Part shown: positions 1 to 29,229 of the stretch, in pieces
How positions within the stretch are numbered: position 1 is the first letter of the stretch
Layout: each line of letters opens with the position of its first letter
DNA from: an uncultured virus (IMG/VR IMGVR_UViG_3300005470_000001)
Lineage: Duplodnaviria; Heunggongvirae; Uroviricota; Caudoviricetes
DNA: 33,080 nucleotides
Virus record (IMG/VR): IMGVR_UViG_3300005470_000001
Direction: 5' to 3' (one strand)
Position numbers and translations under genes: made by a program
The notes under the pieces: generated by a model
What the model saw: only the letters and a program-made list of their open reading frames with translations
The model's database searches: none
What the model was told of the DNA's origin: nothing

Positions 1-152
1 TCCTCAAAGGCATCAACGACCTCAGCCTCAAGCTCTGCAATGCGATTCTGAACCTCAAACGCGTCAATGTATGGCAACGCTGGAGCCCCTTGCTCCGAGT
101 CATACACATCCGCTGTGCCATTATTATACTGTACTACCCATATCGTTTTCAT
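1..152 (-). CDS. 5' part of a hypothetical protein (copy of 8147-8506), truncated by the window edge
   Basis: Identical to 8355-8506; AGGAGG RBS precedes the ATG at 152. Confidence 0.7.
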   Translation of the reverse strand, partial: MKTIWVVQYNNGTADVYDSEQGAPALPYIDAFEVQNRIAELEAEVVDAFE

Positions 153-814
153 TTCTCCTCCTTGTTGAATTTAAAATCTCGCACAGGACGAGCCTTGTAG
201 CTGTTGATCTTGTAGTTGAAGTACTGGTGGCCAGTGTAGAAATACTGGTTCCACGCGAAGTCAGCATTGTATTCCGACGAACTCCAGTAGACATAGGCTC
301 CAAAACCGCCAATAGCTACGCGATTTTTGTACATCTGATTCAGTTCATCCTTGGTCGGCAACCTCCAGCCTTCGCCAAGCGCTTCGACCACCTTAACTGC
401 CTCATCCCATGTGTAAATTCCACCAAGGTCTTGTGGATAGACCTCGAACTCAAGTTCTTGATACAGTGTTGTCGTCATTTCTCCTCCTTGTTCCTCCTTG
501 TTTGGTTTTAAATCTCGCACAGGACGAACCCTGTTATAGATGCTTTTGTAGGCGTTGCCATGGCCGCCAGTGTAGAAACACTTGAGCCACGCAATCTCCT
601 CGTCGTACTCCGACGAACTCCAGTAGTAGTAGGCTCCAAAACCGCCAATTTCTTCTTGCTCCAAATACATCAGCTCCAGCTCTTTTTTTGTTGGTAGTCG
701 CCATCCGTCGCCAAGTGCTTCGACAACCTTAACTGCTTCATCCCATATGTAAAATCCTTCGAGATCTTGTGGGTAAACCTCGAACCCAAGTTCTTGATGT
801 AGTGCTGTCGTCAT
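149..814 (-). CDS. Tandem two-domain DUF1566/C-type-lectin-fold protein, probable DGR target
   Basis: Two copies of W.EA...GWRLPT..EL...YWSSSE...AW...R.RPVR. Start moved from 862 to ATG 814, which follows AACAAGGAGGAGAA. Confidence 0.85.
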   Translation of the reverse strand: MTTALHQELGFEVYPQDLEGFYIWDEAVKVVEALGDGWRLPTKKELELMYLEQEEIGGFGAYYYWSSSEYDEEIAWLKCFYTGGHGNAYKSIYNRVRPVRDLKPNKEEQGGEMTTTLYQELEFEVYPQDLGGIYTWDEAVKVVEALGEGWRLPTKDELNQMYKNRVAIGGFGAYVYWSSSEYNADFAWNQYFYTGHQYFNYKINSYKARPVRDFKFNKEEK

Positions 815-830
815 TTCTCCTCCTTGTTTA

Positions 831-1061
831 TTACGAAAGGTTAAATGCTTCAATCTCTGCACTTGTTAGTTTTTCTAACGCAGACTCACGAAGTTTTATA
901 CGTTTAATCTCTTTTTTTATATAAGGAGATATATTTGTTTTCGTGTTATATTGCTTTCCATAAGCATCAACACCCCAACCACATTCATCGCAGTGCCAAT
1001 CATTGTGTCCTTCCATTATGTAAGACCCACAATTCTTACAAACAATTACATCGTGTCCCAT
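831..1061 (-). CDS. Small Zn-ribbon protein
   Basis: CKNC...CDEC motif; gene packing. Confidence 0.7.
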   Translation of the reverse strand: MGHDVIVCKNCGSYIMEGHNDWHCDECGWGVDAYGKQYNTKTNISPYIKKEIKRIKLRESALEKLTSAEIEAFNLS

Positions 1062-1062
1062 C

Positions 1063-1326
1063 TTAAACCTCCTCCCAATTTAGTTTAGCCCCACACTGAG
1101 GGCAAAAAGTCCATTCTTCGGATAGTCCCCTATATTCGCATTCCGAACAGTCCCAGTCTTTACGCCCTGATCCGTTATACACCGGTCTTATATATATTTT
1201 TTGCGGGTATTCTTCTGCGCGTTTCCTCCAGTAGCACACATCGCATAGGTCAAGGTCAACGCCCTTCTGTCTGCCATGTAGGCGTGGGTTGATGGCGTAT
1301 GATCCGCAATTTTTGCAGTTTATCAT
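1063..1326 (-). CDS. Double Zn-finger phage protein
   Basis: CKNC/CDVC and CSEC/CPQC motifs. Confidence 0.75.
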   Translation of the reverse strand: MINCKNCGSYAINPRLHGRQKGVDLDLCDVCYWRKRAEEYPQKIYIRPVYNGSGRKDWDCSECEYRGLSEEWTFCPQCGAKLNWEEV

Positions 1327-1631
1327 TTTTCCTTTTTGTTTAGCATTGCGTTTATAATTTGGGTAACTGGTGACTCAGTTGTCGCATATACTGCTATGTC
1401 TTCAAGCGCGCCTTCAAGCTCGGCTATGCGCTGAACTGCCTGTGTATACTTAGCACTCAGCTCAAAGTATCGGGTATGTGCAGTCTTGCTTGCTTCAGTA
1501 TGCAGCTCAGCAGTCCTCATACTCCTGTCCAGTTGCTCCTCAAGCTCAGTGATGCGCTCTCTCAAGATGTCTTCAACTCCTCTACTCTGTTGCATCTCTT
1601 CGATTTGTGACTCATTCATGTTTATCTTCAT
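1323..1631 (-). CDS. Hypothetical coiled-coil protein
   Basis: RITELE/RIAELE heptads; ATGA overlap with the next gene. Confidence 0.7.
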   Translation of the reverse strand: MKINMNESQIEEMQQSRGVEDILRERITELEEQLDRSMRTAELHTEASKTAHTRYFELSAKYTQAVQRIAELEGALEDIAVYATTESPVTQIINAMLNKKEK

Positions 1632-1756
1632 CTATATAACAATTATGAAATTCTCTATCCCAAATTTCTTCTTTCCAATACTTAACACTATTAAAAACAA
1701 TATCAACAAGCATTTTTATTTTGCTAATAAATTCTGTCATTTTTATTTTCATAATT

Positions 1757-2275
1757 TTATCTAATAATTAATGATTTTTTTGGTGTAATTTTAATACAAT
1801 CAGGGATTGTTTCAAGAACACCATCTTTAAAATCTTTTTTGATTATAGAAATATGTGGTTTAAATTCTTTAGTTGCATAACCACTTGATAAAAGTGAATT
1901 TTTATTTTCTTCAGTAATATCTTCTTTTAATTCCCAAGATTCAGTATTACGAATATTATAATTTCCTAAATCAGTTTTTAATTTACTTTCTCCACTTAAT
2001 TCCATTAATTGCAACATTTTATTACGTGCAAATTCAATTCGTGATTCACAGCTTAATTTGCGTGCTTTTAAACGATTTTCTTCTTCTTCATACATATTGT
2101 ATTGTGAACGATTATAATTAATCCATCCACGATAACGATCAAGTGAATCTTTTAAATCACCATTGAAATTATCTAAAAGAGCTTGAATTTCAGGAGTAAT
2201 TTCACCTTCACTTTCTATTAAAGAATTATCAATGATTTGATAAAGATTTAATAAATCTATAAATGAATTGTTCAT
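1757..2275 (-). CDS. Siphovirus Gp157-like protein
   Basis: LYQI...GEITPE N-terminus, E.RLKARK coiled coil, KLKTD.G C-terminal part, 172 aa. Confidence 0.75.
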   Translation of the reverse strand: MNNSFIDLLNLYQIIDNSLIESEGEITPEIQALLDNFNGDLKDSLDRYRGWINYNRSQYNMYEEEENRLKARKLSCESRIEFARNKMLQLMELSGESKLKTDLGNYNIRNTESWELKEDITEENKNSLLSSGYATKEFKPHISIIKKDFKDGVLETIPDCIKITPKKSLIIR

Positions 2276-2278
2276 ATT

Positions 2279-2686
2279 TTAAAAGTTAATTTTTTGTCCA
2301 TTAACAAAAACCTGTTCAGACATTTTTTTATCTACAACTGGTCCATTTAATGTTACATGTTTTGAATTACATCTAATCCTTGTATTATTTTTAGGATTTT
2401 TTATAATTAAATCTTGATTACATTCATATTTAGAGTTTTTGTAATGAGATTTAAAATGATTTGTTTGATTTATATTTTCTACTAAAAATATTCTTCTGAG
2501 AACTTCATTTCCACATTTTTTATTATCATGAAAATATGTAGAACTACTTGTATCTACAATAAAAACTTCATCATTAATGTTAATTATACAAGAATTGTTT
2601 GTTAACCAACTCAATGTATCTGTAATAATTTTCATTATTTTAGGATCTCTTATTGCAGCTTCATAAAAAGTATCATTTGTTGGCAT
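2279..2686 (-). CDS. Hypothetical protein
   Basis: 135-aa ORF in an operon-like arrangement. Confidence 0.65.
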   Translation of the reverse strand: MPTNDTFYEAAIRDPKIMKIITDTLSWLTNNSCIININDEVFIVDTSSSTYFHDNKKCGNEVLRRIFLVENINQTNHFKSHYKNSKYECNQDLIIKNPKNNTRIRCNSKHVTLNGPVVDKKMSEQVFVNGQKINF

Positions 2687-2719
2687 TATTATATTATTTT
2701 ATTAATAAAATTAATTGTG

Positions 2720-2792
2720 CTGGCAAGACAGGATTCGAACCTGTAACCGAGCGGTTAACAGCCGCTAGCTCTACCAATTGAGCTACTCGCCA
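2720..2792 (-). tRNA. trnN: tRNA-Asn(GTT)
   Basis: Acceptor TGGCGAG/CTTGCCA, anticodon arm AGCGG-CTGTTAA-CCGCT, T loop TTCGAAT. Confidence 0.95.
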
Positions 2793-2798
2793 GTTTAT

Positions 2799-2933
2799 TT
2801 ATTTATATGATTTACCACATACAGTACAAGTACAACCTTCGCTTTTTAATTTACTATTCATCCAACGTTTAAATTTACCAAGAAGTTTGTCTTGAAAAGC
2901 ATGTTCACATGTACATGTTCTAATTACCATCAT
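2799..2933 (-). CDS. 44-aa Cys-rich protein (MMVIRTCTCEH...CTCTVCGKSYK)
   Basis: Hand translation; below the ORF-track cutoff; CxC..H and CxxC motifs. Confidence 0.55.
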   Translation of the reverse strand: MMVIRTCTCEHAFQDKLLGKFKRWMNSKLKSEGCTCTVCGKSYK

Positions 2934-2949
2934 GATTATTTAATTTATT

Positions 2950-3081
2950 TTAGTTATGATAATCTTCACCTGCATACAAGTTGTCAAAATCAACTATTTC
3001 CACATGAACATCATTAGGGCATTCTACTACTTCAGCAACCCCTCCTGCAACATGGATAACAACAATTTTTTCTTCTTTCAT
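2950..3081 (-). CDS. 43-aa protein (MKEEKIVVIHVAGGVAEVVECPNDVHVEIVDFDN...)
   Basis: Hand translation; the second copy differs by conservative N-terminal substitutions and keeps the frame. Confidence 0.65.
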   Translation of the reverse strand: MKEEKIVVIHVAGGVAEVVECPNDVHVEIVDFDNLYAGEDYHN

Positions 3082-3123
3082 TATTAATTATTTTAGTTAT
3101 GATTTATACAAATTTATAATGAA

Positions 3124-3453
3124 TTATTTTTCATATTTCTTTCTGAGTCTCTCATACTCTTTCTTTTCTGATTCTTCTCTTTTGACTTTCAATTGAGCTT
3201 TCTTTTCCTTTGCCTTTACTTCGTTCTTCAATCGTCTTTCATATTCTTTATCAGTCTCAAAACGGTATGAAATCAAATAAAATTTAAAGTCATCATTATC
3301 CCATGTTACTACTCTAAATTTATGAAGTTCACCCGTAATTTTATTTGATAGGTTGACCAATTCATCTATTGCTTCTTCAATGGTTTTTTCATCAAAGATA
3401 TCGTCAAGATAGACGTGAATTCTTTTATCTTCAACTAATTGTTTCTGTTCCAT
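3124..3453 (-). CDS. Hypothetical protein with C-terminal coiled coil
   Basis: Start moved to MEQKQLVE (3453) to avoid overlap with the upstream gene; RFETDKEYERRL...ERLRKKYE tail. Confidence 0.7.
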   Translation of the reverse strand: MEQKQLVEDKRIHVYLDDIFDEKTIEEAIDELVNLSNKITGELHKFRVVTWDNDDFKFYLISYRFETDKEYERRLKNEVKAKEKKAQLKVKREESEKKEYERLRKKYEK

Positions 3454-3457
3454 ATTA

Positions 3458-3940
3458 TTAATTAATTTTAATTGAACCATCATCATTCCATTCATAACCT
3501 GAAATGTCGTACTTCTCTTCAAGAATGTTTTTAGAATAGCCACAAATGCTCATAGTATTCAAATTGATGAAGTTAGCTATCAATTCTCCGCTATCAACAT
3601 CAACAGCACCCAAAACTAAATTCCCGAAGACACTCGTCCTAACTTCAAACTTCCATTTCTTCAGTGGTGGTTCAACTTCTTTTAGATAAGTACAAACCTT
3701 ACCATCTGTTACTTCAGTAACAAGCTCTACTTCTTGATTTGTATAAGCACCAAAACTGCCTTTATGAACGCCGTAGATATACTTCTTACCATCTTCTTTC
3801 TCATAGGCGGTTATAATATCAATATTAGAAGGAAAATATCTATTTCTACCAACTTTCCTTTCATACCCAAGCGAGAACAGATGGTCTTGAACCTTTCGTG
3901 AATGGTCTTCGCTGTGGATTTTAATCTTAATATCTTTCAT
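3458..3940 (-). CDS. Hypothetical protein, paralogue of 11438-11923
   Basis: Shared KVQDHLFSLGYE and C-terminal YDISGYEWNDDGSIKIN. Confidence 0.8.
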   Translation of the reverse strand: MKDIKIKIHSEDHSRKVQDHLFSLGYERKVGRNRYFPSNIDIITAYEKEDGKKYIYGVHKGSFGAYTNQEVELVTEVTDGKVCTYLKEVEPPLKKWKFEVRTSVFGNLVLGAVDVDSGELIANFINLNTMSICGYSKNILEEKYDISGYEWNDDGSIKIN

Positions 3941-4038
3941 TTTCTTTTAATTTAGTTTACGATACATTCAAAATTTATAATAACATTTTGTAGGGCTGGG
4001 GGGACTCGAACCCCCACGGATTTCTCCAGTGGATTTTA

Positions 4039-4828
4039 CTTACCACTATAGCAGTTAGCTACCAGACTTTCTTGTCTATTTACAATCTATTCGTCTGTTT
4101 GTGGTCTGGACTATATCTTTACCATATCATTTCTGATTTAGGTATGCAGTACATAGTCTCTGAACCTTCCTCATGCAAAAATATAAACGACATTTTTGTT
4201 TAGAGGCTCGGATGCTGATTGACCAATATCAGTTATTTTTATAACATTTGAGTTCGTCATTTCTAACCACTCTTTAGTTAACTGATCTCTAAGGCTATCC
4301 CAGCAATTCTCTGCATTACTACTATACAGTTTCCTATATAGCGACCATTGTTGTTGAAGAAAACGATGTAAAGCATTGTGTTTGTTTACTGACATTATCA
4401 TAAAGTTAGATAATATATTGTGTTCAGGATTTTCATCAATATGATGAATAAAGATATCTTTTGATAACAAGAATCCTAAATCAATAATTGCTTGTCTACC
4501 TAAAGTATTACCTTTAGTACTCCTACTTACTTTATTATAATTTTCAGTATTCTTTTTTCTACATTTTAAATGAGTTAATTGGTTTGGTCTATTCATAATC
4601 ATTGATTCACCACATAATGAACAAACTCCTATACCATAACGTTTTTTAGTATTCTTGTTATAGTATTTTTTAACTCGTTCTCTATTATAGATTTTAGCAC
4701 ACTCTTTACATCTTTTTCTTTCAACTACTTCTTCTTTGCCACAATCAATACACATTTTCATATTTAGATAAGTTTAAGTTAAAAACTAAATATACAAAAA
4801 TGGTAGACAATAACAAAAGAAAAGTTTT
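4039..4828 (-). mobile_element. Group I self-splicing intron (790 nt) with HNH ORF
   Basis: 5' exon ends in U and intron ends in G. P AATTGCTGGGA (4308-4298), Q AATCAGCA (4220-4213), R TCAGAGACTA (4163-4154), S AAGATATAGTCC (4119-4108). P3 ATGCAG/CTGCAT; P2 hairpin with GAAA loop. Confidence 0.92.
4171..4761 (-). CDS. Intron-encoded HNH homing endonuclease
   Basis: HHIDENPEHNILSNF...HNALH HNH motif; N-terminal CxxC Zn motifs. Confidence 0.85.
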   Translation of the reverse strand: MKMCIDCGKEEVVERKRCKECAKIYNRERVKKYYNKNTKKRYGIGVCSLCGESMIMNRPNQLTHLKCRKKNTENYNKVSRSTKGNTLGRQAIIDLGFLLSKDIFIHHIDENPEHNILSNFMIMSVNKHNALHRFLQQQWSLYRKLYSSNAENCWDSLRDQLTKEWLEMTNSNVIKITDIGQSASEPLNKNVVYIFA

Positions 4829-4873
4829 AGTCCACAGCGTCTACCAGTTCCGCCACAACCCCATTAATATTTG

Positions 4874-5001
4874 TTCTTCAGGGTGGATTCGAACCACCAA
4901 GACTCAGTTTATCTCAACTGCCACATTGTCTAATTGTCTCATCTAAGTCTTTTATGTGGTAAATGAATAAGACAATGCTCTACCATTTGAGCTACTGAAG
5001 A
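4874..5001 (-). ncRNA. tRNA-like RNA with expanded, non-canonical anticodon region
   Basis: Perfect acceptor TCTTCAG/CTGAAGA, D arm GCTC-AAATGGTA-GAGC, T arm GGTGG-TTCGAAT-CCACC; about 50 extra nt in the middle. Confidence 0.75.
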
Positions 5002-5040
5002 ACCAAATTATATATAAGACCACCATATATATATAATAAG

Positions 5041-5114
5041 TAGGCCCTGTAGGATTTGAACCTACGACCCAGCGATTATGAGTCGCTTGCTCTAACCAAC
5101 TGAGCTAAGGGCCT
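5041..5114 (-). tRNA. tRNA with CAT anticodon, probably Ile2 (lysidine type)
   Basis: Acceptor AGGCCCT/AGGGCCT; arm AGCGA-CTCATAA-TCGCT resembles bacterial tRNA-Ile2. Confidence 0.9.
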
Positions 5115-8146: not shown

Positions 8147-8506
8147 CTATTTCTCCCCCTTGTTTTCAACAGCCCTTTCAAATCTTTTGATCCAAGCTTC
8201 ACGGTCTTCTTCCCATTCATTCAGTGCTTCCAGCTTTCCCTCAAGCACCTCAATCTGTAGCTTCTGCATATCAACTCTTCCTTCTAACTTTATAACCTGC
8301 CCATCCTTTTCAAGCGCACCCTCTATGTGCCTTAATACTCCAAGATGATATCCATCCTCAAAGGCATCAACGACCTCAGCCTCAAGCTCTGCAATGCGAT
8401 TCTGAACCTCAAACGCGTCAATGTATGGCAACGCTGGAGCCCCTTGCTCCGAGTCATACACATCCGCTGTGCCATTATTATACTGTACTACCCATATCGT
8501 TTTCAT
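8147..8506 (-). CDS. Hypothetical coiled-coil protein
   Basis: AGGAGG RBS; RIAELE motif. Confidence 0.7.
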   Translation of the reverse strand: MKTIWVVQYNNGTADVYDSEQGAPALPYIDAFEVQNRIAELEAEVVDAFEDGYHLGVLRHIEGALEKDGQVIKLEGRVDMQKLQIEVLEGKLEALNEWEEDREAWIKRFERAVENKGEK

Positions 8507-9168
8507 TTCTCCTCCTTGTTGAATTTAAAATCTCGCACAGGACGAGCCTTGTAGCTGTTGATCTTGTAGTTGAAGTACTGGTGGCCAGTGTAGAAATACT
8601 GGTTCCACGCGAAGTCAGCATTGTATTCCGACGAACTCCAGTAGACATAGGCTCCAAAACCGCCAATAGCTACGCGATTTTTGTACATCTGATTCAGTTC
8701 ATCCTTGGTCGGCAACCTCCAGCCTTCGCCAAGCGCTTCGACCACCTTAACTGCCTCATCCCATGTGTAAATTCCACCAAGGTCTTGTGGATAGACCTCG
8801 AACTCAAGTTCTTGATACAGTGTTGTCGTCATTTCTCCTCCTTGTTCCTCCTTGTTTGGTTTTAAATCTCGCACAGGACGAACCCTGTTATAGATGCTTT
8901 TGTAGGCGTTGCCATGGCCGCCAGTGTAGAAACACTTGAGCCACGCAATCTCCTCGTCGTACTCCGACGAACTCCAGTAGTAGTAGGCTCCAAAACCGCC
9001 AATTTCTTCTTGCTCCAAATACATCAGCTCCAGCTCTTTTTTTGTTGGTAGTCGCCATCCGTCGCCAAGTGCTTCGACAACCTTAACTGCTTCATCCCAT
9101 ATGTAAAATCCTTCGAGATCTTGTGGGTAAACCTCGAACCCAAGTTCTTGATGTAGTGCTGTCGTCAT
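8503..9168 (-). CDS. Tandem two-domain DUF1566/CLec protein (duplicate of 149-814)
   Basis: Identical translation. Confidence 0.85.
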   Translation of the reverse strand: MTTALHQELGFEVYPQDLEGFYIWDEAVKVVEALGDGWRLPTKKELELMYLEQEEIGGFGAYYYWSSSEYDEEIAWLKCFYTGGHGNAYKSIYNRVRPVRDLKPNKEEQGGEMTTTLYQELEFEVYPQDLGGIYTWDEAVKVVEALGEGWRLPTKDELNQMYKNRVAIGGFGAYVYWSSSEYNADFAWNQYFYTGHQYFNYKINSYKARPVRDFKFNKEEK

Positions 9169-9184
9169 TTCTCCTCCTTGTTTA

Positions 9185-9415
9185 TTACGAAAGGTTAAAT
9201 GCTTCAATCTCTGCACTTGTTAGTTTTTCTAACGCAGACTCACGAAGTTTTATACGTTTAATCTCTTTTTTTATATAAGGAGATATATTTGTTTTCGTGT
9301 TATATTGCTTTCCATAAGCATCAACACCCCAACCACATTCATCGCAGTGCCAATCATTGTGTCCTTCCATTATGTAAGACCCACAATTCTTACAAACAAT
9401 TACATCGTGTCCCAT
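9185..9415 (-). CDS. Small Zn-ribbon protein (duplicate)
   Basis: Identical to 831-1061. Confidence 0.7.
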   Translation of the reverse strand: MGHDVIVCKNCGSYIMEGHNDWHCDECGWGVDAYGKQYNTKTNISPYIKKEIKRIKLRESALEKLTSAEIEAFNLS

Positions 9416-9416
9416 C

Positions 9417-9680
9417 TTAAACCTCCTCCCAATTTAGTTTAGCCCCACACTGAGGGCAAAAAGTCCATTCTTCGGATAGTCCCCTATATTCGCATTCCGA
9501 ACAGTCCCAGTCTTTACGCCCTGATCCGTTATACACCGGTCTTATATATATTTTTTGCGGGTATTCTTCTGCGCGTTTCCTCCAGTAGCACACATCGCAT
9601 AGGTCAAGGTCAACGCCCTTCTGTCTGCCATGTAGGCGTGGGTTGATGGCGTATGATCCGCAATTTTTGCAGTTTATCAT
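9417..9680 (-). CDS. Double Zn-finger protein (duplicate)
   Basis: Identical to 1063-1326. Confidence 0.75.
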   Translation of the reverse strand: MINCKNCGSYAINPRLHGRQKGVDLDLCDVCYWRKRAEEYPQKIYIRPVYNGSGRKDWDCSECEYRGLSEEWTFCPQCGAKLNWEEV

Positions 9681-9985
9681 TTTTCCTTTTTGTTTAGCAT
9701 TGCGTTTATAATTTGGGTAACTGGTGACTCAGTTGTCGCATATACTGCTATGTCTTCAAGCGCGCCTTCAAGCTCGGCTATGCGCTGAACTGCCTGTGTA
9801 TACTTAGCACTCAGCTCAAAGTATCGGGTATGTGCAGTCTTGCTTGCTTCAGTATGCAGCTCAGCAGTCCTCATACTCCTGTCCAGTTGCTCCTCAAGCT
9901 CAGTGATGCGCTCTCTCAAGATGTCTTCAACTCCTCTACTCTGTTGCATCTCTTCGATTTGTGACTCATTCATGTTTATCTTCAT
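9677..9985 (-). CDS. Coiled-coil hypothetical protein (duplicate)
   Basis: Identical to 1323-1631. Confidence 0.7.
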   Translation of the reverse strand: MKINMNESQIEEMQQSRGVEDILRERITELEEQLDRSMRTAELHTEASKTAHTRYFELSAKYTQAVQRIAELEGALEDIAVYATTESPVTQIINAMLNKKEK

Positions 9986-10110
9986 CTATATAACAATTAT
10001 GAAATTCTCTATCCCAAATTTCTTCTTTCCAATACTTAACACTATTAAAAACAATATCAACAAGCATTTTTATTTTGCTAATAAATTCTGTCATTTTTAT
10101 TTTCATAATT

Positions 10111-10629
10111 TTATCTAATAATTAATGATTTTTTTGGTGTAATTTTAATACAATCAGGGATTGTTTCAAGAACACCATCTTTAAAATCTTTTTTGATTAT
10201 AGAAATATGTGGTTTAAATTCTTTAGTTGCATAACCACTTGATAAAAGTGAATTTTTATTTTCTTCAGTAATATCTTCTTTTAATTCCCAAGATTCAGTA
10301 TTACGAATATTATAATTTCCTAAATCAGTTTTTAATTTACTTTCTCCACTTAATTCCATTAATTGCAACATTTTATTACGTGCAAATTCAATTCGTGATT
10401 CACAGCTTAATTTGCGTGCTTTTAAACGATTTTCTTCTTCTTCATACATATTGTATTGTGAACGATTATAATTAATCCATCCACGATAACGATCAAGTGA
10501 ATCTTTTAAATCACCATTGAAATTATCTAAAAGAGCTTGAATTTCAGGAGTAATTTCACCTTCACTTTCTATTAAAGAATTATCAATGATTTGATAAAGA
10601 TTTAATAAATCTATAAATGAATTGTTCAT
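10111..10629 (-). CDS. Siphovirus Gp157-like protein (duplicate)
   Basis: Identical to 1757-2275. Confidence 0.75.
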   Translation of the reverse strand: MNNSFIDLLNLYQIIDNSLIESEGEITPEIQALLDNFNGDLKDSLDRYRGWINYNRSQYNMYEEEENRLKARKLSCESRIEFARNKMLQLMELSGESKLKTDLGNYNIRNTESWELKEDITEENKNSLLSSGYATKEFKPHISIIKKDFKDGVLETIPDCIKITPKKSLIIR

Positions 10630-10632
10630 ATT

Positions 10633-11040
10633 TTAAAAGTTAATTTTTTGTCCATTAACAAAAACCTGTTCAGACATTTTTTTATCTACAACTGGTCCAT
10701 TTAATGTTACATGTTTTGAATTACATCTAATCCTTGTATTATTTTTAGGATTTTTTATAATTAAATCTTGATTACATTCATATTTAGAGTTTTTGTAATG
10801 AGATTTAAAATGATTTGTTTGATTTATATTTTCTACTAAAAATATTCTTCTGAGAACTTCATTTCCACATTTTTTATTATCATGAAAATATGTAGAACTA
10901 CTTGTATCTACAATAAAAACTTCATCATTAATGTTAATTATACAAGAATTGTTTGTTAACCAACTCAATGTATCTGTAATAATTTTCATTATTTTAGGAT
11001 CTCTTATTGCAGCTTCATAAAAAGTATCATTTGTTGGCAT
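10633..11040 (-). CDS. Hypothetical protein (duplicate)
   Basis: Identical to 2279-2686. Confidence 0.65.
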   Translation of the reverse strand: MPTNDTFYEAAIRDPKIMKIITDTLSWLTNNSCIININDEVFIVDTSSSTYFHDNKKCGNEVLRRIFLVENINQTNHFKSHYKNSKYECNQDLIIKNPKNNTRIRCNSKHVTLNGPVVDKKMSEQVFVNGQKINF

Positions 11041-11073
11041 TATTATATTATTTTATTAATAAAATTAATTGTG

Positions 11074-11146
11074 CTGGCAAGACAGGATTCGAACCTGTAA
11101 CCGAGCGGTTAACAGCCGCTAGCTCTACCAATTGAGCTACTCGCCA
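11074..11146 (-). tRNA. trnN: tRNA-Asn(GTT) (duplicate)
   Basis: Identical to 2720-2792. Confidence 0.95.
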
Positions 11147-11152
11147 GTTTAT

Positions 11153-11287
11153 TTATTTATATGATTTACCACATACAGTACAAGTACAACCTTCGCTTTT
11201 TAATTTACTATTCATCCAACGTTTAAATTTACCAAGAAGTTTGTCTTGAAAAGCATGTTCACATGTACATGTTCTAATTACCATCAT
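11153..11287 (-). CDS. 44-aa Cys-rich protein (duplicate)
   Basis: Identical to 2799-2933. Confidence 0.55.
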   Translation of the reverse strand: MMVIRTCTCEHAFQDKLLGKFKRWMNSKLKSEGCTCTVCGKSYK

Positions 11288-11303
11288 GATTATTTAATTT
11301 ATT

Positions 11304-11435
11304 TTAGTTATGATAATCTTCACCTGCATACAAGTTGTCAAAATCAACTATTTCCACATGAACATCATTAGGGCATTCTACTACTTCAGCAACCCCTCCT
11401 GTAACATGGATAACAACAACTCTTTCTTTTTCCAT
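11304..11435 (-). CDS. 43-aa protein (MEKERVVVIHVTGGVAEVVECPN...)
   Basis: Variant of 2950-3081 that spans the repeat boundary. Confidence 0.65.
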   Translation of the reverse strand: MEKERVVVIHVTGGVAEVVECPNDVHVEIVDFDNLYAGEDYHN

Positions 11436-11437
11436 TA

Positions 11438-11923
11438 TTAATTGATTTTAATTGAACCATCATCATTCCATTCATAACCTGAAATGTCGTACTTCTTTTC
11501 AAGTATATTTTTAGTATAGCCACAAATGGCCATGTTATCCAAATTAATTAAATTAGCTATCAATTCTCCACTTTTAACGTCAACAGCACCCAAAACTAAA
11601 TTCCCGAAAACAGTCTTCCTAACTTCAAACTTCCATTTCTTCAATGGTAGTTCAACTTCTTTTAGATAAGTACAAACTTTTCCATCTGTTACTTCAGTAA
11701 CAAGTTCTACCTCTTGATTTTCTATGTTATTGAAATCACTTACATTATAGAAATAGATATATATATATTTACCATCTATTTCTTCGTATGCGGTTATAAC
11801 ATCAAGTTTACCAATAAAATATGTTTTTCCAATTCCTCTCCATTCATATCCAAGCGAGAACAAATGGTCCTGTACCTTATGAGCATACTCTTCGTCTCTG
11901 ATTCTAATCTTAATGTTTTTCAT
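11438..11923 (-). CDS. Hypothetical protein, paralogue of 3458-3940
   Basis: Start moved to MKNIKIRIR (11923) because the longer ORF overlaps tRNA-Arg and the paralogue starts MKDIKIKI. Confidence 0.8.
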   Translation of the reverse strand: MKNIKIRIRDEEYAHKVQDHLFSLGYEWRGIGKTYFIGKLDVITAYEEIDGKYIYIYFYNVSDFNNIENQEVELVTEVTDGKVCTYLKEVELPLKKWKFEVRKTVFGNLVLGAVDVKSGELIANLINLDNMAICGYTKNILEKKYDISGYEWNDDGSIKIN

Positions 11924-11953
11924 TTTTTTGATATTATTGTAAAAATTTACATG

Positions 11954-21937: not shown

Positions 21938-24031
21938 ATGTCAGCAGTAGACTCTATTAGAAATTCAGATGGTATTTGGATCAATACAAATTGCTTCAGG
22001 GAAGAAGGTTTATCTTTTCAGAAAAATAAATACTATACCCCTGAAGCATGGGGATCACCAGCCTGGGTAGAATATTGGAATGAACAACTCAGAAGATGCA
22101 AAGAAGGTTATTCTGTAGGTGGTGCTTATATCACAGGTCATCATTACTTCTATCTTAATTTCACTAATATCATGTTGACTAAAGATAAAGGTGAAGAAAA
22201 GGTTGTAAAAGATATTAAAAAAACTAGTGGTTCTAAAGTATCAGTATGTCCTGATTTTTGGGATGGTGATTATAATTACTTTCATGCTCTTGATATTGCA
22301 AGAAATGGATGTACCAGAGAATATTTTGATAATCTTAATTTAGGATTAACTGTTCAAGATAGATTCCTCACTGGTGGATATCATATGATTGTCGGCAAAG
22401 CACGTAGAAAAGGATTTTCATATAAATCAGCTGCTATATGTACTAATATATATAATACAGAACCTGATTCACTTGTTATTATTGGTGCATTTGATAAGAA
22501 ATTCTTATATCCACGTGGTACAATGGGTATGACAAGTAGATTTATGGATTTCTTGAATGCTAATACTGGATGGAGAAAAGCTAGAGAATTTGTTGATAAA
22601 CAGGAACATAGAAAAGCATCATATAAAAGTTTTAAATCTGGTGTACCTGTTGAAAACGGTTATATGTCAGAAATCATAGCTTTAACTTTTGGTGATAACC
22701 CAGATGCAGCTCGTGGTAAAGATGCAAAACTTATTTTATTTGAAGAAGCAGGTAAATTTAATAACCTGAAAGATTCATATATGGCTACAAAAGAATCATT
22801 GGAAGATGGTGCTTTTATTACTGGTCAAATGATTATACAGGGTACTTCGGGTGATATGGAAGGTGGTACTATTGATTTTGCAGATATGTATTATAATCCT
22901 GAAGCTTATGATTTATTTCCTTTTAATAATATATGGGATGAAAATGCAGAGCATTCATTGTGTGGTTATTTTCATCCTGAAACATTGAATCTTGTTGGTT
23001 TTTATGACAAGGAAGGTAACTCTGATGTTGAAAATGCAAAAAATTATGAATTAAATAAAAGAGAAGTTTTAAGAAAAGCTGCAAATTCTTCATATGTATT
23101 ACAGAAAAGAATGCAGGAAAAACCATTATGTCCAAGTGAAGCTTTTTTAACAGTATCTACAAATGATTTTCCTATAGTAGAATTACAACATCAATTAGAT
23201 TTAGTAAGAAGAGAGAATTTACATGTAAAGAAAAGTATGCCTGTTACTTTATATAGAGAAGAAGAAACAAATAAAGTTAAGGTTAAGTTAGATTTAAATG
23301 GTACATTAAAGCCTATTAATTCTTATAAAATTAAAGATGAAGATATAAGAGGTTCTGTAGTTATTTATGAGTATCCTGTTCCAGATGCACCAAAAGGTTT
23401 ATATAAAATAGGATATGATCCTTATAGACAAAATCAGGCATTAAGTAGTACTTCTTTAGGTGCTACATATGTATATAAAGGTGTATTACAAGGATCAGCT
23501 ACATATGATTGTATAGTAGCATCTTATATAGGTAGACCAAATACATCTGATGATTATAATAGAAATCTTGAGATGTTAGCAGAATTATATAATGCTGAAA
23601 TAGGATATGAAAATGAAGTAACAGAAGTAAGATCTTATTTTACTAAAAGAAAAAAATTACATTTACTTGCTGTACAACCAGATGCTATTATCTCAGCTAC
23701 TATTAAAAATTCAAAAGTTGCTCGTGTATATGGTATACATATGAATGAAAAACTTAAAGATGCTGGAGAAAAATATCTTAAACAATGGTTATTAACAGAA
23801 AAAAATATTGACGAAAACGATAAACTTATTCTCAATCTAAATACTATTTATGATATAGGATTACTTGAAGAACTAATTCAATATAATAGAAAAGGAAACT
23901 TTGACAGAATTAGTGCAATGATTGTATTAATGATGTTTATTGAAAATGATGGAGAAAATAAAATTCATAATAAAAAACAAGAAGACGATGAAAAGTTTTG
24001 GGATAGCTTTGCACGATCTTTATTCAGATAA
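21938..24031 (+). CDS. terL: Terminase large subunit
   Basis: Walker A GKARRKGFSY, Walker B LILFEEAGKF, nuclease IGYDPY and GNFDR. Confidence 0.93.
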   Translation: MSAVDSIRNSDGIWINTNCFREEGLSFQKNKYYTPEAWGSPAWVEYWNEQLRRCKEGYSVGGAYITGHHYFYLNFTNIMLTKDKGEEKVVKDIKKTSGSKVSVCPDFWDGDYNYFHALDIARNGCTREYFDNLNLGLTVQDRFLTGGYHMIVGKARRKGFSYKSAAICTNIYNTEPDSLVIIGAFDKKFLYPRGTMGMTSRFMDFLNANTGWRKAREFVDKQEHRKASYKSFKSGVPVENGYMSEIIALTFGDNPDAARGKDAKLILFEEAGKFNNLKDSYMATKESLEDGAFITGQMIIQGTSGDMEGGTIDFADMYYNPEAYDLFPFNNIWDENAEHSLCGYFHPETLNLVGFYDKEGNSDVENAKNYELNKREVLRKAANSSYVLQKRMQEKPLCPSEAFLTVSTNDFPIVELQHQLDLVRRENLHVKKSMPVTLYREEETNKVKVKLDLNGTLKPINSYKIKDEDIRGSVVIYEYPVPDAPKGLYKIGYDPYRQNQALSSTSLGATYVYKGVLQGSATYDCIVASYIGRPNTSDDYNRNLEMLAELYNAEIGYENEVTEVRSYFTKRKKLHLLAVQPDAIISATIKNSKVARVYGIHMNEKLKDAGEKYLKQWLLTEKNIDENDKLILNLNTIYDIGLLEELIQYNRKGNFDRISAMIVLMMFIENDGENKIHNKKQEDDEKFWDSFARSLFR

Positions 24032-24056
24032 TTAACTTTAACATATATTAAATAAA

Positions 24057-26492
24057 ATGGATTATAACAACGAAGCATCAATGTCTCAAACAAATGGTTA
24101 TTTGAGTAGTACCAAAAGAGACAGATTAACTCAAAAAGAAAAAGATTCTAACGATAAAGCATGGTATAAACATAAGATACAGACTTTTGATACAGCCGCA
24201 TATCATTCATATGGATTTGGTGGGATATCAGAAACAGTTAGAATGAAAGTTAACTATGATCTTTTCAATAATAAAATTAATGAAGAAGATTTCAATTATG
24301 TTATCAGACCTTATAGTACTGATCCTAAAAATGGTGAATTAAAATTACCCGCTAACTTTACTAATAAAGATATTGTATCTAATAAAATACGAGCTTTGCT
24401 TGGTATGGAAATGCGTAGACCACTTGATTATAAAATTCTTGCTGTTAACGAAGAAGCTACTACTAGAAAAGAAGAAGAACATATGGGTCGTATCAAAGAA
24501 TATGTTGTTTCTCAAATAATGATACCTATTGAAGTACAAGCAAAACAACAAGCTATGGCTCAATTAAATGGTAAAGAACCTACTCCTGAACAAATAGAGC
24601 AAATTGAACAGGAAGTACAAGCTGCTATTCAAGCTGCTACTCCTCCTGAAGTTGCAAAATATATGGCTAGAGAACACCAAGATCCAGCTGAAGCAATGAT
24701 GTCACAGCTTTTTGAATACATAAATCAATTTAATTATATCAAAGATAGTTTCAATAAAGGTTGGAAACATGCTCTGATTTCAGCTTATGAAGTATATTTT
24801 GTTGGTGAAAGAAATGAATTACCTGTTTGTAAAGTAATTAATCCTGTATTTTTTGATTGTGCTAAATCACCAGATACAGAATTCATTGAAGATGGTGAAT
24901 GGGCTGTTTATGAAATGAATATGTCTCCAAGTGAGGTTGTTAGTATGTTTGGTAAAGAGCTTACTGAAAAAGAAATTGATAGAATTTATTCATTAGCTGA
25001 AGGTAGAGGTGTAGATCCTCAATTCACTTTTACTGATAGTAAAGTATCTAATTATAGAAGAAATGTTCGTGTGTTTCATGCTACTTGGAAAAGTTTAAGA
25101 AAAGTTGGTTTTCTTACATATATAGATAATGAAGGTATTGAAGTTATTAAACCTGTCAATGAAGATTATAAATTTGATAAAGAATCTGGAGATATCAATC
25201 TTGAATGGGAATGGATTCCTGAAGTACATGAGGGATACAGAATAGGTTTTGATATATATAAAAGTATGGGCCCCCTCAAAGGACAATATAGAGATATAAA
25301 TAATCTTTATAATGTAAAATTACCTTATCATGGTACTATATATGATAATATAAATGCAGAACCTATTTCAGCAATGGATAGAATGAAAACTTGGCAGTTT
25401 TATTATAATATTATTATGTTCCGTATTGAAAAATTAATGGCTTCTGATAAAGGTAAAATTGCACTTATCAATAGTAAAATGATTCCCAAAAGTCTTGGTA
25501 TTGATATGGATAAATGGCTTTACTTTATGGATACATTAAAAATAGGTTTTATGGATCCTACCAATGAACTTGGTGATGTATCTACATCTAGTAAAGAATT
25601 AGATTTAAGTATGATGGCTGACATCAAGAAATATGTTGAATTAGCAGATTATATAGAACAGAAATGTGGTAGAGCAATTGGTGTTACACCTGAAATTGAA
25701 GGACAGATTGCAAATTCAGCAGCAGTTGGTAATACAGAACAAAATATTAATATGGTATCTAATATACTTGAACCATATTTTAATATGCATGAAAGAGTAA
25801 AAAGAAATGTATTAACATCATTACTTGAAATCAGTAGATATATATATGCTGATCCAAAGAAAGCAGAAAAACTTAGTTTTGTACTCGATGACATGTCAGT
25901 TCAATATTTAACACTTGATAGTGAAATGTTATCAGCAAGTAGTTTTGGTTTATTTGTTTCCAACAGTAGTAAAATACAAGCAACTAAACAACTTATTCAA
26001 AATCTTGCTCAAGCAGCATTACAAAATGATAAAGCTAATTTTAGTGATGTTATTAAGATAACATTATCTGATACATTACAGGATGCACAAGAACTTCTTG
26101 AATCATCTGAAAGAGATTTTGAAAAGAGGCAACAAGAATTTGAACAATTTAAAACACAACAACAACAAGAACTTGCTAAACAAGAGGAGGCATATAGAGA
26201 AAAAGAATTTGAAAGAGAGAAAGAACTTATTATTCTCAAAGAAGCTGAAAGAAGAGAAACTGAACTTCAAAAACAAGCTATGTTATCTATTGGTTTTGAT
26301 ATGAATAAAGATCAGGATAATGATGGTGTACCTGATGTACTTGAAGTATATAAGAGTGGAATTGATGCTGATATTAAAATGAGAAAACAAACACTTGATG
26401 AACAGAAATTTGGACATCAAAAACAACTTGATAAAGAAAAACTTAGTTTAGATAAACAAAAAATAGCTAAGATGGTAAGTCGTAATAAATAA
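24057..26492 (+). CDS. Portal protein
   Basis: 811 aa directly after TerL; long C-terminal coiled coil as in crAss-like portals. Confidence 0.88.
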   Translation: MDYNNEASMSQTNGYLSSTKRDRLTQKEKDSNDKAWYKHKIQTFDTAAYHSYGFGGISETVRMKVNYDLFNNKINEEDFNYVIRPYSTDPKNGELKLPANFTNKDIVSNKIRALLGMEMRRPLDYKILAVNEEATTRKEEEHMGRIKEYVVSQIMIPIEVQAKQQAMAQLNGKEPTPEQIEQIEQEVQAAIQAATPPEVAKYMAREHQDPAEAMMSQLFEYINQFNYIKDSFNKGWKHALISAYEVYFVGERNELPVCKVINPVFFDCAKSPDTEFIEDGEWAVYEMNMSPSEVVSMFGKELTEKEIDRIYSLAEGRGVDPQFTFTDSKVSNYRRNVRVFHATWKSLRKVGFLTYIDNEGIEVIKPVNEDYKFDKESGDINLEWEWIPEVHEGYRIGFDIYKSMGPLKGQYRDINNLYNVKLPYHGTIYDNINAEPISAMDRMKTWQFYYNIIMFRIEKLMASDKGKIALINSKMIPKSLGIDMDKWLYFMDTLKIGFMDPTNELGDVSTSSKELDLSMMADIKKYVELADYIEQKCGRAIGVTPEIEGQIANSAAVGNTEQNINMVSNILEPYFNMHERVKRNVLTSLLEISRYIYADPKKAEKLSFVLDDMSVQYLTLDSEMLSASSFGLFVSNSSKIQATKQLIQNLAQAALQNDKANFSDVIKITLSDTLQDAQELLESSERDFEKRQQEFEQFKTQQQQELAKQEEAYREKEFEREKELIILKEAERRETELQKQAMLSIGFDMNKDQDNDGVPDVLEVYKSGIDADIKMRKQTLDEQKFGHQKQLDKEKLSLDKQKIAKMVSRNK

Positions 26493-26572
26493 TGCTATTT
26501 AGATAAAAGATAAAATAATACAAAAATACATTTTGAAATTGTATAAAACTTAATAAATTAAATGTAATAGAT

Positions 26573-27760
26573 ATGAATAAGAAAAAAACAGAAACTGATG
26601 ACTCATTGTTAAGTAATTTTGAATTTGATACACCTAATGTAAATGATTTTTTTGGTGTAGCAGGATCAGCAGTAGAACCAGTAGTTACTCCAGCAGTTAA
26701 AGTAGAAAAAGAAACTGATGAAAGTACACTAAAAGAACCTGAAGAACCTGAAACAATTATTCCCGATGAAGAATTCAGTTTTGTCGAAGAGGAGAATGAT
26801 TCTAAAGATGATGATAAATCAAAAAAAGAATCTAAAGATACTAAGAAAGAGGATATAGATAAACCTGAAGATAAAAAAGAAAAAGCTGATAAATCAGATA
26901 TTGATGAAGAAGATGTAAAACTCTTTACTGATTTAGCTAATGATTTTAAGGAAATGGGCTTGTTTACATCAACTGACTTAGGTGATGAGGAGATTACTCC
27001 TGATCTGTTCTTTGAAAAGGTTGAAGAAGAAGTTAGTAATAGAGCTAATGGTGTTGTAGAAAATTTGATGACAACTCTTGATGATGATGCTGCTAGTTTT
27101 TTGAAGTTTAAAAGTAATGGTGGCGATACAAGAGATTTCTTCAGATTATACGGAGAAGTATCTGAAATACCAGTTCCAGATGTTGATAGTGAAGAAAATC
27201 AGGAAGCATTTCTAAGATATTATTATTCTTTAGATGAAGATCTTGATCTTGAGGATATTGATGATAGAATTGTTACCTATTCTGAAAAAGGTACATTAGA
27301 AAAATATGCCAAGAAACATTTTGAAAAACTTGAGCATGAATATGCTGTACAAAAACAGACTTTACTTAAACAACAGGAAGAAGCTAAGAAACAACAGATA
27401 GAACACCAAAGAAAGTTTCAGAATAATCTTAAAACAATTATTAATACTGAAAAACAAATTGGTGATCTTGTCATAGATCCTAAAAAGGATAGTTCGCTTG
27501 TTGATTTTATTACTAAACCAATATTTAATAAAGAAACAAAGTTGTCCGCAACTAGTTTCCAAACAAAACTTGGTGAAATTTTCAATGATGAGAAAAAATT
27601 AATTCTTCTTGCAAAACTTGTACAAAATGATTTTGATTTTAGTAGTGTAAAAAAGAAGGCAGAAAGTGAAGCTAACAAGAAAACATTACATACAATTAGA
27701 ACCAGAAAAGAGTATAAAAGTGCTGACTCAGGAAAATCTTTAATAGATTATTTTAAATAA
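26573..27760 (+). CDS. Putative capsid scaffolding protein
   Basis: Acidic, low-complexity N-terminus and helical core; lies between portal and capsid. Confidence 0.65.
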   Translation: MNKKKTETDDSLLSNFEFDTPNVNDFFGVAGSAVEPVVTPAVKVEKETDESTLKEPEEPETIIPDEEFSFVEEENDSKDDDKSKKESKDTKKEDIDKPEDKKEKADKSDIDEEDVKLFTDLANDFKEMGLFTSTDLGDEEITPDLFFEKVEEEVSNRANGVVENLMTTLDDDAASFLKFKSNGGDTRDFFRLYGEVSEIPVPDVDSEENQEAFLRYYYSLDEDLDLEDIDDRIVTYSEKGTLEKYAKKHFEKLEHEYAVQKQTLLKQQEEAKKQQIEHQRKFQNNLKTIINTEKQIGDLVIDPKKDSSLVDFITKPIFNKETKLSATSFQTKLGEIFNDEKKLILLAKLVQNDFDFSSVKKKAESEANKKTLHTIRTRKEYKSADSGKSLIDYFK

Positions 27761-27783
27761 CAAACAACTAAAACAATAATAAT

Positions 27784-29229
27784 ATGGCAATTGCAGAAAA
27801 CAAACTTATAATTAAAAAGATGCCTTGGCATGCTAACATGACAGAAAAAAACCACCTTGGTGCTGCCATGATTATCAAACCAGAAGTCTTTGAGAGTAAG
27901 GCTAATCAGATTTTTAGCGCATATACTTACTCTGATAACCCTTTGACAGGTATGTTAATGAAGACTGGTTCTACTCGTACTATTGGTACTAGTGAGTGGG
28001 AGTGGGAGCTTCGTGGTTTATCTACCCGTCCTCTGGTTATTGTTGAAAATCTTAATGTAAGCGATACTACTCCGGGTAAGTATAATCAAGAATTTAATAT
28101 TAAACTTGATGAGGATTGGTTCCTTGCTGGTGATGTTATTCATCCTGGTAATCCCAATGTTCAGGTTCGTATTCAGGAAGTTGTTGGTAAGCAGGGTAAC
28201 GGTTGTGTTTATTCTGTGCGTTACATGAGTGATGACAGAAATGCTTTCCTTGATCCTAAATATCTTGATCCTGGTACTCGTTGGGCGAAACTTTATTCGC
28301 AGTACGGTGAAGCTGAAGAGCAGTCTGGTTCAACTCAGTATTCGCTTCCTTTAACACTTTCAAGCCGTATGTCACGTTATCGTAAGATGTATAAGGTTAC
28401 CAATGATGCTGCTAATCAGGTCCTCGCAATTAAGATTCCTGACTCTAATGGTGTTTATCATGACACTTGGGTTGGTTATGCTGAGGTTGAGTATTGGAAG
28501 CAATGGTATCGTGAGCTTGAGCGTGGTGCATGGTATTCTAAATCTACCAACACTGTTAATAGTGCAAGTGGTCGTCCTATCTATTCTGGTCCCGGTGTAC
28601 AAGAGTTGCTGAAGGATAGCAATATTTACTACTACAATCAACTTAGTGCAAAACTGATTGAAGAGTATCTTCTTGATATCTTCTACGGTAAGACTCGCCC
28701 TGGTTCTGGTCGTCAGATTAAGGCTTACACTGGTGAGTATGGTATGCTTCAGTTCCACCGTGCTGTTCAGAGCCTTGTTGACAATAGTGGATTCATTAAA
28801 ACTGTTGATATTTATCAGAAGCCGCAGGCAAGTTCTTATACTTCTGTAGGTGCTGCTGCTGGTCTTCAGTATGTTAAATACAACATGGCTAATGGTTGTT
28901 CACTTGAGCTTGAGCATAATCCGCTTTATGATGATGTTCAGATTAACTTTGAGAAGGATGAAGTCACTGGTTATCCGATTGAATCAATGAGGTATACATT
29001 CCTTGATGTTACCGATGGTGGACTTTCTGCAAAGAATGTTCAGCTTGTTGATAGAACCAATGGTTTTGCTCTTGGATATGTTGCTGGTATGCAGACACCT
29101 TATGGTCCGAACACTAAGGGACTTATGTCTCACAGTGGTGGATACTATGAGATGCATGTTGAAAAACAGCAGGGTATTCACATTGAAGATCCTACTCGTT
29201 GTGGTGAGCTTATTCTTCGCAGATCATAA
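27784..29229 (+). CDS. Major capsid protein (crAss-like)
   Basis: 481 aa, strong high-expression codon bias, TGEYG..QFH and LEHNPLYDD motifs, position. Confidence 0.9.
   Translation: MAIAENKLIIKKMPWHANMTEKNHLGAAMIIKPEVFESKANQIFSAYTYSDNPLTGMLMKTGSTRTIGTSEWEWELRGLSTRPLVIVENLNVSDTTPGKYNQEFNIKLDEDWFLAGDVIHPGNPNVQVRIQEVVGKQGNGCVYSVRYMSDDRNAFLDPKYLDPGTRWAKLYSQYGEAEEQSGSTQYSLPLTLSSRMSRYRKMYKVTNDAANQVLAIKIPDSNGVYHDTWVGYAEVEYWKQWYRELERGAWYSKSTNTVNSASGRPIYSGPGVQELLKDSNIYYYNQLSAKLIEEYLLDIFYGKTRPGSGRQIKAYTGEYGMLQFHRAVQSLVDNSGFIKTVDIYQKPQASSYTSVGAAAGLQYVKYNMANGCSLELEHNPLYDDVQINFEKDEVTGYPIESMRYTFLDVTDGGLSAKNVQLVDRTNGFALGYVAGMQTPYGPNTKGLMSHSGGYYEMHVEKQQGIHIEDPTRCGELILRRS

Follow-up and report, generated by a model that had tools for sequence, protein, structure and literature searches.

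The locus

The DNA analysed here, referred to as the window, is a stretch of 33,080 nucleotides from an uncultured virus (IMG/VR record IMGVR_UViG_3300005470_000001) with a G+C content of about 30%. It is part of a crAss-like phage, as its ORFs at 21938-29226 match PHROG families of terminase, portal, and major head proteins with E-values of 1e-141 to 1e-169; the head protein shares 53.5% identity with that of Flavobacterium phage FpV4, and the 146 matching records include Bacteroides phages and crAssphages. All tRNA genes of the window lie on the minus strand. Default ARAGORN called six of them and missed the tRNA-Leu gene described below, as did Rfam at gathering scores, and once introns were allowed ARAGORN called a tRNA-Leu(taa) with a 790-nt intron, i(35,790).

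This gene consists of two minus-strand halves separated by 790 nt, delimited from the sequence and by the ARAGORN call. The 5′ exon (4829-4862) reads GGGGTTG-TG-GCG..CGC-T-GTGGA-CT from 4862 to 4829 and supplies the acceptor strand, the D arm, the 5′ strand of the anticodon stem, C32, and U33. The 3′ exon (3991-4038) reads TAA-AA-TCCAC from 4038, that is, U34 A35 A36, A37 A38, and the 3′ strand of the anticodon stem, and continues with a 13-nt variable arm, a T arm (GGGGG/CCCCC), the acceptor strand CAGCCCT, and A73 at 3991, with no encoded CCA. Together the halves build an undamaged class II tRNA with a fully paired acceptor stem, and its usefulness can be gauged from the TTA codon, which accounts for 140 of the 354 leucine codons in 13 ORFs. 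The splice solution is unique: cuts after U33 (4829) and after G4039 leave a U at position −1, a G at omega, and the seven-nucleotide anticodon loop CUUAAAA, the loop size on which the original prediction had been staked. The 3′ exon starts with UAAAAUCC, and the splice pattern is CU/a...g/UAAAA.

A tRNA-like gene lies 11 nt upstream of tRNA-Leu, at 4874-5001 on the minus strand. It matches the Rfam tRNA model with 45.3 bits and a 38-nt gap in the anticodon loop, and ARAGORN with introns allowed reads it as tRNA-Lys(UUU) with a 35-nt insert and a 25-nt variable arm. The inserts are mutually complementary (CCACA/UGUGG and AAGACUUAG/CUGAGUCUU), and the gene is identical in two sister phage contigs, G002 and G003, discussed below. 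The insert is too small to be a group I intron. Elsewhere in the window, a direct repeat of 3.1 kb (1-3098 and 8355-11453; 99.8% identity, 8354 bases apart) carries a Gam-like gene, a phrog_4245 gene, and a tRNA-Asn, and may represent either a real duplication or the assembly of two strains. The stretch 3432-3946 is 81.5% like 11414-11929.

Fold and guide sequence of the intron

The insert is a group I intron of 790 nt on the minus strand, running from A4828 to omega G4039 (4039-4828), as identified by a covariance-model match, covariation, and a splice-site table. At a permissive threshold, the Rfam group I model RF00028 matched the minus strand from 4366 to 4095 over its full model length (29.7 bits, E 2.2e-5) with the P, Q, R, and S elements aligned; the covariance-model check of the intron thus recovered the core, but at a score below the 50-bit gathering score. 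The P, Q, R, and S elements that had been noticed by eye are present in this alignment, and the P3 and P7 helices in a family alignment.

The 5′ strand of P1 (4828-4832) is formed by exon nucleotides G30 A31 C32 U33 and intron A+1, which pair with 4347-4343 in four exon pairs and one intron pair. The 3′ strand of P1 (4343-4347) is the internal guide sequence U-GGUC, in which G4346 wobbles with U33 (U4829). The original prediction had named GGUC at 4346-4343 as a candidate guide pairing with exon GACU through a U-G pair, and its position directly 5′ of P2 and its invariance (GGTC in 10 of 10 introns at the 33/34 site) agree with that proposal. P2 (4322-4341) has 8 bp and a GAAA loop, with changes on both sides in seven of its eight pairs, and the 5′ strand of P3 (4311-4316) pairs with 4144-4149, with both-side changes in four of six pairs. 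The region 4213-4305 holds P4 (4300-4305 with 4213-4218) around P5 and an extended P5a/P5b arm (4222-4295); P4 is invariant, and P5 and P5a/b covary. P6 (4164-4212) likewise covaries, and has a single U-U at its base in the window.

The 5′ strand of P7, in the R element (4154-4160, with bulged A4159), is invariant in 11 of 11 sequences and pairs with the 3′ strand in the S element (4108-4113), which was placed by alignment. The 3′ strand of P3 (4144-4149) follows P7 directly in both the sequence and the alignment, and P7.1 and P7.2 are absent, as had been stated for this insert. P8 (4121-4143), also covarying, is near-identical to P8 of a sister phage's intron at the 34/35 site and 84% like that of a tRNA-Leu intron in a 735-kb phage. 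The P9 domain (4042-4105) is closed by ACCAC (4105-4101) and GUGGU (4046-4042), leaving AAG before the 3′ splice site, and the closing helix is kept in relatives by compensatory changes (ACUAC/GUAGU, ACUCAA/UUGAGU, and AUCAGA/UCUGAU, checked by eye only). No P10 was seen in the window's intron.

The fold was evaluated on an alignment of 11 of 14 cores; the remaining three, the compact cores of L232, G002, and G003, were excluded, as their P5 and P6 could not be aligned with the rest. RNAalifold recovered P2, P4, P5, P5a/b, P6, P7, and P8 from this alignment, and P3 and P7 were entered by hand as a pseudoknot for pair counting. Standard pairs occupied 95.4% of 589 cells compared with 27-39% in slid controls, a comparison biased in favour of the model, which was partly derived from the same 11 sequences. 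Compensatory changes on both sides were found in 27 of 54 pairs, and none of 500 shuffles reached any of the observed measures; P4 and P7 are uninformative on covariation because they never vary, and J8/7 is conserved. In the window's own sequence 53 of the 54 modelled core pairs are standard, the exception being the U-U in P6, and with the covariation of the family this makes the observed split tRNA-Leu with its group I intron more than chance. The fold, the covariation, and the splice-site table agree on a phage tRNA-Leu(UAA) gene in which a group I intron of intact structure follows U33, and the central claim of the original prediction stands.

The endonuclease gene within the intron

The intron contains an ORF of 196 codons (4171-4761, minus strand) whose product has two CxxC zinc ribbons and an HNH_3-type nuclease motif (HH106-107, N115, N119, H128, and H132). 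The P1 loop contains the first 415 nt of the ORF, whose last 58 codons double as P1′ to P6, and the TGA stop (4173-4171) falls in the 3′ strand of P6; the guide GGUC itself lies within the codons for W139-S140. Homologues of the ORF number 81, with 45-86% identity, and all are metagenomic. In an alignment of 33 of them CxxC pairs are invariant, the individual invariant residues being H106, H107, N115, N119, H128, H132, C47, C50, and C67, and the window ORF keeps all of these; the reading frame extends through the R element (EEGSETMY) in 22 of the 33 relatives and through the S element (DIVQT) in 17.

The assignment as an HNH endonuclease, which had been made from the sequence by eye, holds through the family and not through a domain match of the window's protein. 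PF13392 was matched by 30 of the 33 family members (best E 3e-9), and PHROG searches with the window's protein gave six HNH families and one endonuclease VII family (E 6e-5 to 5e-3); Pfam searches with the same protein returned no HNH match at 0.01, or at E up to 1. An AlphaFold model had a mean pLDDT of 86, including the tail encoded by the ribozyme core. Foldseek found no PDB entry matching this model at an E-value of 0.001 or below, and phmmer with the ORF found no match among PDB sequences. VIA-align superposed model residues 73-137 on I-HmuI with Z 3.7 and rmsd 2.8 over 64 residues, at rank 4 and tied with unrelated chains. In 50,697 phage records, neither a megablast with 3900-5100 nor a tblastn with the ORF found anything relevant.

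The RNA is the primary constraint on the overlapping region, because its sequence is kept both by ORF-less members of the family and by members at 34/35 whose ORF is a different one. Since the ORF reads through P1′ to P6, translation and ribozyme folding of one RNA should be mutually exclusive, and a passage in PMC3984707 states that core-invading intron ORFs require tight expression control.

Two insertion sites and their guides

Introns in phage tRNA-Leu genes were found at 33/34 and at 34/35, and each site has its own guide. In 10 of 10 introns at 33/34, GGUC-G lies just 5′ of P2 and pairs with exon GACU, placing U33 opposite the first G. In the four tabulated 34/35 introns the guide is GAG(U)(C/G), which pairs with (GA)CUU, and 12 further compact 34/35 introns have GAGU or GAGC as judged by eye, with one intron, L286, ambiguous. 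In every case, therefore, the guide and the 3′ junction indicate the same site as the 5′ flank does, and the 34/35 position is excluded for the 33/34 class because U33 is followed by any of the four bases, depending on the member.

A scan of viral contigs for the S element followed by the junction G/TAAAATC gave 14 hits, 12 of which are tRNA-Leu: 11 were called as intron-bearing tRNA-Leu by ARAGORN, the twelfth is cut by the contig end, and the remaining two are unrelated. The corresponding pattern with G/AAAATC was found 42 times, and in 34 of these cases an intron-tRNA call spans the site; core-motif scans yielded further tRNA-Leu(UAA) genes cut after U33. Among 185,579 prokaryote species, each represented by one genome, the 33/34 pattern had 11 hits, about as many as were estimated for chance alone, and none was in a tRNA. 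Introns at 33/34 without an ORF measure 204 nt (L232, the same as L238) or 278-279 nt (L240 and L241), and L242 is a 480-nt form that has no ORF of at least 60 aa but retains 32 codons from the start of the ORF together with its tail. The premise that tRNA-Leu introns at 34/35 lack ORFs does not extend to phages, in which they often carry them.

Introns or candidate introns were also noted in other viral sequences. Just downstream of the split tRNA-Leu in contig L237, at 1644-2521, ARAGORN called a second intron-bearing tRNA, a tRNA-His with a 786-nt intron. The 735-kb uncultured phage LR756501.1 (locus L245, 1370-1660) has an unannotated tRNA-Leu(UAA) with a 205-nt intron at 34/35, and Prevotella phage Lak-B1 (L246, 1337-1654) has an unannotated split tRNA with a 245-nt intron. 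In Vibrio phage 1.232.O (MG592596.1; L244, 1501-1636) the interval separating the major capsid protein gene from an annotated HNH nuclease gene contains a stretch 73% like P2-P5a of the window, which probably represents an intron, missing from the annotation, within the capsid gene or following it.

Turnover at one gene in sister phages

A viral contig represented by loci L001, L008, and L051 is 99.8% identical to the window over 6761-3989 and carries the same intron; the two sequences do not diverge until the 3′ exon, within its T arm. The contigs G002 and G003 share with the window the upstream tRNA-Met, the odd tRNA-like gene, and the 5′ exon at 98.7-98.9% identity, ending exactly at 4829. 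Their introns differ from that of the window and occupy the classic site (CUU/a...g/AAAAUCC); G002 has another type of HNH ORF (motif CPNCH), and G003 has an ORF of the same type as G002 on the opposite strand. Homology with the window returns in P6-P9 at 79%, and P8-P9 resembles the window's. Because the flanks match while the introns differ, three introns are seen at two adjacent sites in one gene of near-identical phages. These flanks, 98.7-99.8% identical up to 4829 around three different introns, are signs of mobility, as are relatives without an ORF (L232, L240, and L241) or with the ORF deleted (L242).

Four alleles of the gene were found and all are interrupted. The search of related phages for intron-less orthologues, suggested with the original prediction, brought up none of the same gene in a 5′ exon motif scan, contigs of four DNA runs, or a metagenome junction scan. 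The motif scan gave 30 loci: nine uninterrupted tRNA-Leu(UAA), eight tRNA-Leu(CAA), seven non-tRNA, and six interrupted, G002 and G003 among the last. Other viral contigs have uninterrupted copies whose anticodon arm is the same, and an uninterrupted tRNA-Leu(UAA) with an identical 28-nt junction is present in three metagenome contigs of one unrelated element with an 18-tRNA array, which was rejected as an orthologue of the window gene on that account. The single joint seen in the DNA-run contigs, of 4027 to 4837, was rejected as an intron-less allele, as it carries 19 other letters and belongs to another tRNA-Leu. The nearest record, G001, is without the intron region.

DNA contigs about 90-95% alike with most of the intron in place were recovered from runs X1, X2, and X4 (groundwater, aquatic, and freshwater), and short intron pieces from a fourth run, X3 (lake water), the four runs belonging to four studies. 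Among the public runs found to contain the window's stretch, none was an RNA run.

The 3′ exons of the sister phages (G002, at L039 1312-1360; G003, at L037; and L001) have a different variable arm and T arm; the acceptor stem that they form with the shared 5′ exon contains two neighbouring U-U mismatches, and that of the window pairs throughout. From the sequences, these differences look like exon co-conversion or recombination within the tRNA gene. A second group I intron lies a few kilobases downstream in G002 (L039 3725-3949; RF00028 95.8 bits), in a DNA-polymerase-like frame and followed by a core-like stretch, and G003 has the same arrangement. In L007 (G006), the 5′ half of tRNA-Leu is followed by other sequence.

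Origin and integrity of the intron

The window intron is a member of a recurrent family of phage tRNA-Leu introns, a family common in uncultured phages and hardly described in print. A maximum-likelihood tree was built from 26 cores (the duplicate L254 was dropped, L238 and the cut L231 are absent, and midpoint rooting was used for drawing only). A clade with an extended P5, with support of 100/100, contains nine introns at 33/34 and three at 34/35 (G004, G005, and L286), and a weakly supported compact group contains 12 introns at 34/35 and L232 at 33/34. The site label requires three changes on this tree, and the starred branches force at least two, although recombination between modules could mimic repeated site changes. 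The window intron itself looks like a mosaic at the sequence level, with the guide, P2, and P9 like those of L232 and G002 and P3-P7 like those of L236 and L242.

These relationships bear on the original prediction of an independent invasion, in which an unrelated homing intron from a phage protein gene would have entered at 33/34, owing nothing to the classic tRNA-Leu intron. The P4-P5 core motif occurs in more than 120 viral loci, with tRNA genes in only five of the 80 fetched, the P4-P5a stretch is 72% like Twort nrdE intron 2, and the extended-P5 clade stands apart from the compact tRNA-Leu introns, all of which would suit such an origin. Yet that clade itself includes introns at 34/35, the compact group includes a 33/34 intron (L232) whose guide, P2, and P9 are close to the window's, phages about 99% identical carry 34/35 introns in the same gene, the window's P8-P9 matches that of a sister phage's 34/35 intron, and the design of the 3′ domain is common to all, so that an independent invasion is unlikely. 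The further suggestion that the intron might home into a host trnL found no support, the 17-nt junction being present in 0 of 301 sampled genomes from the phylum of a Reichenbachiella record.

The element could also be dead, with an intron that has lost the ability to splice and a tRNA pseudogene that the phage merely carries along. The sub-threshold Rfam score, the overlap of the ORF with the core, the U-U in P6, and the odd inserts of the neighbouring tRNA-like gene at 4874-5001 point in this direction; against them stand the nearly complete core pairing with invariant P4 and P7 and conserved J8/7, an intact ORF that has kept every invariant residue of its family, two undamaged tRNA halves with a well-paired acceptor stem, and the persistence of the intron in the 90-95% alike variants of three further runs, which together make a dead element improbable. 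Finally, although relatives in the same gene do sit at 34/35, it is scarcely credible that the window intron has been mis-mapped and really lies there as in cyanobacteria and plastids: that position is impossible because the base after U33 is A in the window (and C in the relative L241), UAAAAUCC follows the omega G directly, and the guide lacks the A that pairs with U33 in 34/35 introns.

Proposed mechanism and significance

The reading preferred here, with a probability of about 85%, is that a crAss-like freshwater phage carries a tRNA-Leu(UAA) gene interrupted between U33 and U34 by a mobile 790-nt group I intron with an HNH_3-family gene, which would splice and home as follows, the splicing and homing steps being read from the anatomy of the locus. 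After transcription of the tRNA cluster, the intron would fold through P2-P9, and the guide GGUC (4346-4343) would pair with exon GACU across the 480-nt P1 loop, setting U33 opposite G. Free guanosine would then cut after U33, omega G4039 would enter the P7 site, and joining of the exons would give the loop CUUAAAA. The 196-aa HNH_3-family enzyme encoded by the intron presumably acts on uninterrupted tRNA-Leu(UAA) genes in phages infecting the same cell, which it would nick or cut, its predicted target being an uninterrupted tRNA-Leu gene bearing GTGGACTTAAAATCCAC, and repair of the cut gene would copy the intron in. Members of the intron family occupy 34/35 or, as in the window, the position one base upstream, with the guide adjusted to the site each time. 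Several points count against this reading: P1 has only four exon pairs and one intron pair with which to close over so long a loop, and no P10 was seen; the Rfam score falls short of the gathering score; a U-U sits at the base of P6; the window's own protein lacks a Pfam HNH match; and the searches brought up no intron-less copy of the gene.

A broader and decidedly tentative interpretation, with the odds somewhat against it, treats the phage tRNA-Leu introns as a natural series. On more than one occasion the intron would have shifted by a single base, between U33 and U34, through re-tuning of one guide position (GAGUC to GGUC), three introns at two sites would be competing for one gene in phages about 99% identical, and the placement of the endonuclease gene over the ribozyme core would make each RNA either ribozyme or message, a built-in switch between splicing and spreading.

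One strict motif alone retrieves about 46 phage tRNA group I introns from public viral contigs, and the tRNA sets of phages are undercounted because standard tRNA finders miss split genes. The 33/34 and 34/35 forms with matching guides in near-identical phages offer a simple test of how a ribozyme target site moves, and the ORF over the ribozyme core a test of the balance between splicing and endonuclease expression.

Comparison with known systems

The classic tRNA-Leu(UAA) intron of cyanobacteria and plastids (Leu.3Ug) lies between U34 and A35. The window intron shares with it the tRNA and anticodon loop, the U at −1, the omega G, a P2 with a GNRA loop, and the absence of P7.1 and P7.2, the type examples being represented in this comparison by the phage 34/35 introns. 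In both, the P9 helix closes the 3′ domain just before the splice site, and sister phages carry introns of the classic kind in the same gene. The window intron differs in being inserted between U33 and U34, one base upstream of the U34/A35 site of Leu.3Ug, with GGUC instead of GAGU as its guide; its P5 arm is extended, and the HNH ORF that begins in its P1 loop overlaps the core. Set against the IC3 architecture, it is without P7.1 and P7.2, has P2, and has an extended P5 arm.

A cyanobacterial tRNA-fMet intron (fMet.2Ug), which Bonocora and Shub are said to have described in 2001, reportedly lies after U33 and carries the homing endonuclease I-Ssp6803I. It resembles the window intron as a group I intron after U33 of a tRNA with its own homing endonuclease aimed at the anticodon region, and differs in its tRNA, its bacterial host, and its endonuclease, which is said to belong to another family than HNH. 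Intron 2 of nrdE in the Staphylococcus phage Twort (AF485080) is likewise a phage group I intron with an HNH gene (I-TwoI), and the part of it that resembles core positions 41-154 (P4-P5a) immediately precedes the I-TwoI gene; it lies in a protein-coding gene, its ORF occupies another part of the fold, and the likeness found was confined to P4-P5a. I-HmuI, the HNH homing endonuclease of Bacillus phage SPO1 (PDB 1u3e), is the weak structural match noted above; the window ORF has no sequence match to any solved structure.

The passage on phage introns in PMC3984707 places all those known by 2014 in protein-coding genes, despite the many tRNA genes of phages, and crAss-like phage introns are described from protein genes only in the relevant part of PMC7886860. 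The literature searched offered no description after 2014 of group I introns in phage tRNA genes. For bacteria, 21 types of tRNA intron are distinguished, four classical ones of which are named in the text, under a naming rule that combines the loop base of the cut, the −1 base, and the omega base (Williams 2020). The window intron follows base 2 of the loop, has U at −1, and has g as its omega base, which makes it Leu.2Ug by this rule.
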